The notes under the pieces are model-generated. The model worked only from the letters and a program-made list of their open reading frames with translations. It did not search any database and was not told where the DNA came from. This document shows positions 38,873 to 38,972 of a DNA stretch of 64,000 nt, piece by piece. Source of the DNA: Escherichia phage N4. The position numbers and the translations under genes were made by a program. How positions within the stretch are numbered: the stretch's first letter is position 1; each line of letters begins with the position of its first letter. The stretch is from the sequence record NC_008720.1; one strand, 5' to 3'.

Positions 38873-38935
38873 AGTAGGTTTCCTATACAAACTTATATCT
38901 ATTAGAAATCACACTATACCTAGTGTAAGGACGAG

Positions 38936-38954
38936 AAAAAAGCCCCGAAGGGCT
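38936..38954 (-). terminator. Intrinsic terminator/attenuator with UUCG tetraloop, just upstream of the vRNAP gene
   Basis: Minus-strand RNA AGCCC-UUCG-GGGCU followed by a 5-U run (plus strand A-run 38936-38940); immediately after the upstream gene stop (38973). Confidence 0.55.
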
Positions 38955-38972
38955 TTTGTATTATGGTAGAAA

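Follow-up and report, generated by a model that had tools for sequence, protein, structure and literature searches.

How might Escherichia phage N4 hold the synthesis of its virion RNA polymerase (vRNAP) below that of the virion proteins encoded immediately upstream? The vRNAP, an enzyme of ~3,500 residues packaged in about four copies per virion, is a hallmark of the Schitoviridae. To our knowledge, what limits its synthesis in relation to gp51 and gp52 has not previously been addressed. The question is raised here by the spacer between the gp51 and vRNAP (gp50) genes, which lies within a 64,000-nucleotide (nt) stretch of N4 DNA (record NC_008720.1), referred to below as the window. It is proposed, with moderate confidence and from sequence comparison, that this spacer is a three-part control module, comprising a terminator, a late promoter with a −10 element only and a translation-limiting leader, through which vRNAP would be expressed separately and weakly. 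No description of the family-wide positional conservation of the terminator, of the hairpin-embedded TAnAGT or of the invariant leader was found in the literature searched.

In the virion, vRNAP is present in 4 ± 1 copies, 12 N-terminal fragments of gp52 have been seen in the tail, and gp51 and gp52 are expected as nonamers (PMC12633501). This ratio, ~4 vRNAP against roughly 9–12 gp51 or gp52 per virion, makes differential control of the vRNAP gene, as suggested in a preliminary description of this DNA, plausible. The combined effect of the three elements would be a vRNAP output several-fold below that of gp51 and gp52, in line with virion stoichiometry. Testable grounds for such separate dosing are provided at the gp51/gp50 boundary by the conserved terminator, the invariant leader and what is probably a promoter of vRNAP's own.

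The late genes of N4 are read leftward, on the minus strand here, by host σ70-RNA polymerase (RNAP) activated by N4SSB (PMC4496689), so an intrinsic terminator on this strand would act on E. coli RNAP. Genes gp54-gp53-gp52-gp51 are tightly packed, with gaps of 3–13 nt; between them and the vRNAP gene lies a spacer of 100 nt. The junction is located on the leftward strand at N4 position ~45,025 of 70,153 (~64% along the genome), window position 1 corresponding to genome position ~6154, and the region is 99% identical to Enquatrovirus phages by BLAST. In the annotations of related records, gp51 is a 644-residue ejection protein, the '66 kDa' virion protein, encoded directly upstream of vRNAP (PMC12633501). 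The vRNAP open reading frame (ORF) comprises 3,506 codons on the minus strand, and the N-terminus of its product is 100% identical in phage 3HA13. The gp51–gp50 spacer is exactly 38873-38972, the interval given in the preliminary description, and is organised as follows:

38973..38975, minus strand: TAA stop codon of gp51 (ORF 38973..40907)
38938..38957, minus strand: hairpin 1, AAAAGCCC-UUCG-GGGCUUUU, eight perfect pairs, from an inverted-repeat search and folding
38953-38950 / 38945-38942, minus strand: GC core of hairpin 1, GCCC/GGGC, closing a C(UUCG)G tetraloop at 38949-38946
38957-38954, minus strand: A-tract of hairpin 1, which mirrors the T-run and makes the element symmetric
38936..38941, minus strand: U-tract, six T straight after GGGC and then CTC, the expected release site of host RNAP
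38926-38921 / 38916-38911, minus strand: hairpin 2, ACACUA/UAGUGU with loop GGUA, six Watson–Crick pairs
38913..38918, minus strand: TATAGT, a candidate −10 hexamer by its sequence, formed by the hairpin 2 loop and 3′ arm and starting 46 nt before the vRNAP ATG
38904..38908, minus strand: pyrimidine tract UUUCU, possibly an anti-Shine–Dalgarno segment or, should TATAGT be a promoter, the region of the start site, on weak evidence
38888..38899, minus strand: invariant leader block GATATAAGTTTG, 12/12 positions unchanged in four genera
38879..38884, minus strand: Shine–Dalgarno (SD) region AGGAAA, of which AGGAA is invariant in the Enquatrovirinae alignment
38870..38872, minus strand: ATG of vRNAP (gp50; MSVFDRLAGF...), the start also annotated in related records; the gene extends to 28370

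The ORF caller places the vRNAP start at an in-frame TTG at 38890 (38888-38890), 18 nt upstream of this ATG. The ATG at 38872 is taken as the real start, because the TTG sits within the invariant non-coding block, upstream of the SD, and because related records annotate the ATG.

As RNA, the spacer is predicted to fold into independent hairpins with a free energy (ΔG) of −25.7 kcal/mol (z = −2.25), and 4 of 200 shuffled sequences fold equally well. The preliminary description had also raised attenuation of the vRNAP gene. Classical attenuation is not supported: the terminator stands right after the gp51 stop codon, ahead of the only promoter-like element, and neither an antiterminator nor an alternative fold was seen in the minimum free energy, centroid or RNAalifold folds, which contain only the independent hairpins. 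Furthermore, an Rfam search of the spacer gave nothing above threshold.

Hairpin 1 as a probable terminator

Hairpin 1 begins 15 nt past the gp51 stop codon on the late strand. Its arms, AAAAGCCC/GGGCTTTT at 38938-38945 and 38950-38957, are 100% complementary around the minus-strand loop TTCG, and its stem (ΔG −10.6 kcal/mol), adjoining U-tract and position behind a coding sequence give it all of the sequence features expected of an intrinsic terminator. The UUCG terminator of the preliminary description, given there as AGCCC-UUCG-GGGCU followed by five U, is the same element counted differently; it has 8-bp arms and six U.

Conservation of the element was assessed in 17 distinct junctions from the Enquatrovirinae (four named genera and metagenomic contigs), a set extended to 22; a metagenome scan gave few new variants, and an IMG/VR search for distant junctions with a single vRNAP protein returned N4 itself only. 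The GCCC/GGGC core is kept in 22/22 distinct junctions, and the T-run columns are invariant or nearly so. The loop is a UNCG tetraloop closed by C-G in N4, KP8 and Moo19 (C(UUCG)G), in the G7C group (C(UACG)G) and in junction L024 (C(UCCG)G). Lineages with other loops (AUCC, ACUA or AUAC) always carry a fifth G-C pair, while the UNCG loops stand on stems with four. Correspondingly, ΔG of the full hairpin across the Enquatrovirinae junctions stays between −9.7 and −12.6 kcal/mol, and this narrow range, with the extra G-C pair accompanying non-UNCG loops, indicates selection on the stability of hairpin 1. Distant BLAST matches start at the terminator and not within the gp51 coding sequence, the 3′ end of which is unconserved as DNA; the spacer is therefore better conserved than the end of gp51.

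Outside the Enquatrovirinae, a strong hairpin with a T-run directly follows the gp51-like stop codon in nine of the 11 other Schitoviridae genera compared, represented by Axy10, inbricus, JWAlpha (UUCG loop), Frozen, Zuri, Pokken (UUCG loop), OLIVR1, RHph_X2_28B and QDWS595. Among these 11 genera, such an element ahead of vRNAP is absent in Dinoroseobacter phage R7L and unclear in HN02.

Homologues of hairpin 1 have already been annotated as terminators by software in Jura, PhAPEC5 (by ARNold) and Pokken. The annotation is inconsistent: the Jura record (L001, 1948-1967) puts the terminator on the strand opposite the late genes, and in the G7C record (L041, 21471-21564) the sequence is present but unannotated, with three other terminators annotated in the region shown. 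A standard terminator scan did not list hairpin 1, probably because the stem was extended into the A/T tracts and too few T were left in the tail; a purpose-made scan found it on both strands.

The terminators of T4 intercistronic regions, and many terminators of E. coli, reportedly carry C(UUCG)G or other UNCG tetraloops, as Tuerk et al. are said to have noted in 1988. Hairpin 1 shares with such terminators a C-G-closed UUCG loop on a GC stem, an adjoining U-tract and a location just past a stop codon, and there is no essential difference; its stem is short (four G-C pairs with an A-U extension) and the element is symmetric. It is thus an ordinary intrinsic terminator in kind, already predicted by software in relatives, and it very probably functions as one. 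Hairpin 1 and its U-tract would act as a Rho-independent terminator on host σ70-RNAP, ending the gp54-gp53-gp52-gp51 unit at least in part.

The same symmetry of A-tract, stem and T-tract makes action in both directions plausible. The plus strand reads GGGCUUUUGUAUU, and the plus-strand tail past the hairpin is conserved as UUUUGUAUU or UUUUAUUAGUAU. Hairpin 1 would then probably also halt antisense transcripts leaving the vRNAP gene. In the N4-like phage LUZ7, both bidirectional terminators and antisense middle transcripts that cross the late cassette have been documented (PMC9163698); such antisense transcripts are reported only for LUZ7 and LIT1.

LUZ7 also provides a precedent for incomplete termination. 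In that phage, ONT-cappable-seq revealed leaky internal terminators that tune expression, and inefficient terminators of T7 are cited alongside them (PMC9163698). As at the N4 site, such a terminator stands inside a cassette upstream of a lower-copy gene. The LUZ7 vRNAP gene itself, however, is in none of the operons captured in that study.

Hairpin 2 and a candidate late promoter

The second hairpin of the preliminary description, ACACTA/TAGTGT, is present with fully complementary arms and a 4-nt loop; its true position is 38911-38926, one base from that given. As RNA it is predicted to extend to eight pairs, including one G·U, at 38928-38909. Because the loop varies in length (4, 6 or 8 nt), the comparison was anchored on the structure instead of on MAFFT alignment columns. 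Hairpin 2 is conserved in all 22 distinct related junctions. Its inner pairs, ACT/AGT, never vary, while pair 4 is C-G in eight sequences, T-A in five and T·G in four, pair 5 is A-T in six or T-A in 11, and pair 6 is C-G in 13. At the variable pairs, 58/68 cells pair in register, compared with 17–35/68 when the arms are slid against each other. RNAalifold independently recovers the helix, with two pairs showing changes on both sides. The wobbles are G·U on the sense strand and would be A·C mismatches on the other; if hairpin 2 forms in nucleic acid, it is therefore the sense strand that folds.

These observations bear on the possibility that the inverted repeats arose by chance in an AT-rich spacer and have no function. 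Hairpin 2 has only 6 bp, and such repeats are common; nonetheless, conservation in 22/22 junctions with compensatory changes, positional conservation across the family and enrichment over shuffled sequences effectively refute this explanation.

The hairpin 2 loop always ends in TA, which together with the invariant AGT gives TAnAGT, and over the 22 junctions n takes all four bases (TATAGT, TAGAGT, TACAGT and TAAAGT). The hairpin alone gives no reason for a fixed TA while the rest of the loop and its length vary; a −10 hexamer would explain it. The key positions of a σ70 −10 element are T at −12, A at −11 and T at −7, and all three are present in N4 TATAGT. Twelve genera have a spacer of 75 nt or more, and in ten of them a single TAnAnT occurs 36–52 nt before the vRNAP ATG, whereas shuffled spacers gave a mean of 1.5 genera and never more than seven in 5,000 trials; as the lineages are related, this recurrence measures deep conservation and not independent origin. 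The versions are TAGACT in Axy10, inbricus and Zuri, TAAACT in JWAlpha, TAAATT in Frozen and TATAGT in HN02. In the five non-Enquatrovirinae genera apart from HN02, a pyrimidine-rich 6-mer comes after the hexamer, with A as the seventh base, an arrangement usual for start sites.

The hexamer is embedded in a hairpin, as in N4, in Burkholderia phage HN02 (AGGACT-tcagctat-AGTCCT) and Achromobacter phage JWAlpha (GGGAGT-ggtaa-ACTCCC). Alcaligenes phage QDWS595 (L016, 432-500) has a perfect TATAAT, at −41, in the loop of its pre-vRNAP terminator hairpin. The positional equivalent of TAnAGT is kept in distant genera that lack the hairpin, and for this reason a −10 element overlapping hairpin 2 is a better reading than the simple leader hairpin of the preliminary description: the hairpin is real, and it is probably more than a part of the vRNAP 5′ leader.

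Within the Enquatrovirinae, the T-run lies exactly 17 nt upstream of the hexamer, with no insertions or deletions between them. It occupies the place of a −35 element, and TTTTTT matches TTGACA at 2/6 positions. N4 late promoters have been described as weak, σ70-type, N4SSB-activated and −10-only (Cho et al. 1995, summarised in PMC4496689 and PMC9163698), and the lack of a −35 element is as expected for promoters of this kind. The TATAGT site resembles them in having a −10-like hexamer without a −35 element, on the late strand and ahead of a late gene; it is unlike them in that its motif is unique in the late region and lies within a conserved hairpin, a context not described for late promoters. 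On this evidence, the case for TAnAGT as a −10-only host σ70 late promoter for vRNAP is evenly balanced. From such a promoter, seventeen bases past the T-run, transcription of the 10.5-kb vRNAP gene would resume at a low level set for that gene, and the hairpin around the promoter, itself under selection, may modulate it or act in read-through RNA. One of the poorly characterised N4SSB-dependent late promoters would then have a defined candidate site in the spacer, which on the practical side would be a compact natural terminator–promoter insulator.

Several points weigh against a terminator–promoter module. With just four G-C pairs, hairpin 1 may be weak, and 5′ or 3′ transcript-end data for N4 or close relatives were not found in the literature searched. 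A σ70 consensus scan finds no two-hexamer promoter at the spacer; the T-run stands where a −35 would be, the fifth base of the hexamer (−8) is G, and the base 7 nt downstream of the hexamer is a pyrimidine in the Enquatrovirinae. GTAnAGT occurs on the late strand 11 times against 12.3 expected, with its only intergenic copy in the vRNAP spacer, so it is not a shared late-promoter signature and was rejected as a general late-promoter motif. The spacers of QDWS595, RHph_X2_28B and R7L, at 53–69 nt, leave little or no room for a promoter, and read-through alone can therefore suffice in some phages. Finally, the sense-strand G·U pairs suggest a role in RNA, and a promoter located inside hairpin 2 would not make that RNA.

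Several of these points favour the main rival explanation, in which hairpin 1 is a leaky terminator, the spacer holds no promoter and vRNAP is made solely by read-through. Hairpin 2 would then be a stabilising or processing stem-loop, the leader a translation-limiting fold and TAnAGT a recognition feature for RNA or protein. Beyond the missing −35 and consensus match, the three short spacers and the sense-strand wobbles, this explanation draws on the mostly leaky terminators of LUZ7 (PMC9163698) and on the treatment of gp50-52 as a single operon (PMC12633501). In the other late gaps, moreover, the hairpin is followed almost at once by the SD and ATG, which makes read-through the operon norm; before vRNAP, ~65 nt lie between. 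What it leaves unexplained is the retention of TAnAnT at −36 to −52 in genera without the hairpin, the pyrimidine 6-mer followed by A, and an invariant TA in a loop that otherwise varies in length and sequence. Read-through as the sole source of vRNAP is accordingly judged rather unlikely, and a −10-only promoter behind the terminator is retained as the preferred reading.

Other candidate promoters at the site were also considered. Alternative −10 hexamers in the invariant block (TATAAG, GATATA and TAAGTT) either lack the final T or would place the start within the SD, and a −35-like CTTACA paired with TCTAAT is unconserved in other genera. An N4 RNAPII middle promoter was rejected on location and sequence (leftward strand, ~45,025). 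Hairpin 2 shares with the early promoters, which are recognised by vRNAP, the form of a small hairpin with sequence-specific loop and stem positions near a transcription start. [quoted passage not shown]

A more speculative and improbable version of the promoter is that the host σ70 −10 element is purposely embedded in an extrudable DNA hairpin, with the TA of −12/−11 in the loop and AGT opening the 3′ arm. If so, the vRNAP late promoter would be a third N4 case of transcription from structured or single-stranded DNA with the help of N4SSB, a protein that binds single-stranded DNA, and the poorly understood activator role of N4SSB would gain a structural target.

The vRNAP leader

The leader block GATATAAGTTTG is identical in four Enquatrovirinae genera, though the N-termini of their vRNAP proteins are just 52–57% identical, and it is unique in the window. 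RNAalifold predicts that GAUAU pairs with AUGUC, which includes the start codon, and that GUUU pairs with AAAC beside the SD, with 98.7% of positions paired across the alignment; as the leader shows almost no variation, covariation is uninformative for this fold. In a competing helix, the pyrimidine tract (UUUCU, UCUCU or UACCU) pairs with AGGAAAC. This anti-SD:SD helix, between alignment columns 65-71 and 93-99, is 81.5% paired, compared with 34–60% when slid, and contains two compensatory changes, each in a single sequence.

Either fold would lower translation initiation. It is tentatively suggested, from these models, that the near-invariant leader (GATATAAGTTTG...AGGAAA...AUG) partly masks the SD and/or the AUG and so keeps translation of vRNAP low. 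Like known leaders that mask the SD or AUG, that of N4 can pair its start codon and the flank of its SD; the N4 structure is a predicted one. In R7L (L039, 609-670), which has no pre-vRNAP terminator, the vRNAP AUG is buried in a predicted 15-bp hairpin, and the analogy suggests that the same purpose may be reached by another route.

On its sense strand, the vRNAP leader of Erwinia phage Frozen (L014) also contains CAAACTTATATC, of which the leader block GATATAAGTTTG is the exact reverse complement. The two sequences are halves of the perfect palindrome CAAACTTATAT.CG.ATATAAGTTTG; left halves related to it are present in inbricus, Axy10, JWAlpha and Pokken. An inversion of GATATAAGTTTG between the Enquatrovirinae and Frozen was rejected in favour of the simpler description as two halves of a quasi-palindrome. 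The block was likewise rejected as a repeated motif or a long-range pairing partner, being unique in the window.

Hairpin 2, the quasi-palindromic leader or both could form an operator in double-stranded DNA, at which a dimeric regulator would repress or activate vRNAP transcription. Inverted repeats near a putative −10 element and start site are typical of operators, and one half of the leader palindrome is present in N4 while the other is kept in Frozen. The arms of hairpin 2, however, covary, and the spacing of the half-sites shifts with loops of 4, 6 and 8 nt, which argues for base pairing and not for recognition by a protein; moreover, neither motif is repeated in the rest of the window. 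An operator is thus considered very improbable, and masking of the SD and/or AUG remains the preferred, tentative role for the leader.

Other hairpins in the window

GC-rich hairpins with stable tetraloops (GAAA, GCAA or GATA) are found in nearly all of the minus-strand late intergenic gaps:

~58060 (gap 58038-58080), minus strand: GGCCGG-GAAA-CCGGCC, no T-run after the stem
~53875 (gap 53857-53890), minus strand: CCCCCA-GCAA-TGGGGG, no T-run
~52520 (gap 52500-52604), minus strand: GCCGGG-GATA-CCCGGC, with a T-run (T5)
~45690 (gap 45650-45713), minus strand: GGGGGAGG-GAAA-CCTCCCC, no T-run
~44975 (gap 44944-45024), minus strand: CACGGCTCAC...GTGAGCCG, with a T-run (T4CT4)

Hairpin 1 is one member of this series of late-gap GC tetraloop hairpins, and in this respect it is not singular. 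As some members have a T-run and others none, they suggest terminators or RNA stabilisers arranged as a graded series along the late transcript.

The series raises the alternative that the spacer hairpins are mainly elements of RNA stability or processing, serving as barriers to 3′ exonucleases and as protective 5′ stems, and that they set differing half-lives within one long late transcript. The hairpins without a U-run at ~58060, 53875 and 45690 do resemble intercistronic stabilisers. Stability would not, however, require the six-U tract and mirrored A-tract, both of which hairpin 1 keeps from genus to genus, and its homologues are called as terminators by prediction software. A purely stabilising role for the spacer hairpins is therefore regarded as improbable.

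A scan for hairpins followed by a T-run over the whole window gave 32 nested hits, against 2.25 in shuffled sequences. Strong elements of this type on the late strand number only three, at 28361, 38957 (hairpin 1) and 51283. At 28344-28361, a bidirectional terminator, GCCCCTC-ATTA-GAGGGGC, has T-rich tails on both strands and marks the junction at which the last rightward genes and the 3′ end of vRNAP converge, where a terminator pair is annotated in G7C. At 51263-51283 (minus strand), a strong hairpin with a T-run, GGGTAGCTC-TGG-GAGCTACCC-TTTTTCTTC (ΔG −14.7 kcal/mol), lies just past the stop codon of the endolysin gp61, within a frame coding for a transmembrane segment, presumably that of the i-spanin gp60. 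Judged by its sequence, it is an intragenic terminator-like element of the lysis cassette.

The preliminary description had further linked hairpin 2, through a shared CACACTA core, to a hairpin at 26556 in the tRNA region. That link did not hold up. CACACTA occurs five times in the window against 8.4 expected, CACACTATA twice against 0.75, and TATAGTGTG with at most one mismatch seven times against 22.6. The extended sequence TATAGTGTGATTTCTAATAG matches the arm of the 26556 repeat, TATAGTGTGTTCACTAATAA, at 16/20 positions, and for the vRNAP site as it stands in KP8 the figure is 18/20; among shuffles, however, 11% contained a match with four or fewer mismatches, the level of the 16/20 match. 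Neither KP8 (genome 28,000-49,000) nor G7C (26,000-48,000) was found to carry its own motif a second time. With counts at or near chance and no counterpart in these scanned stretches, a function shared by hairpin 2 and the 26556 repeat was rejected, and the 16/20 resemblance is possibly a duplication in the N4 lineage, to which no meaning is assigned. The repeat itself consists of 24-nt arms at 26549-26572 and 26619-26642, which are 88% complementary, 46 nt apart and located between tRNA-Thr and tRNA-Pro.

Upstream of the leftward ORF 62049-62741 (230 amino acids), in 62742-62870 on the minus strand, TAGATAATTTGTAGGAAGACTATG resembles the vRNAP leader segment TAGATATAAGTTTGTATAGGAAACCTACTATG. 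The ORF upstream of 62049-62741 is on the opposite strand, and a GGGGT-GCTA-ACCCC hairpin lies ~45 nt farther upstream of TAGATAATTTGTAGGAAGACTATG.

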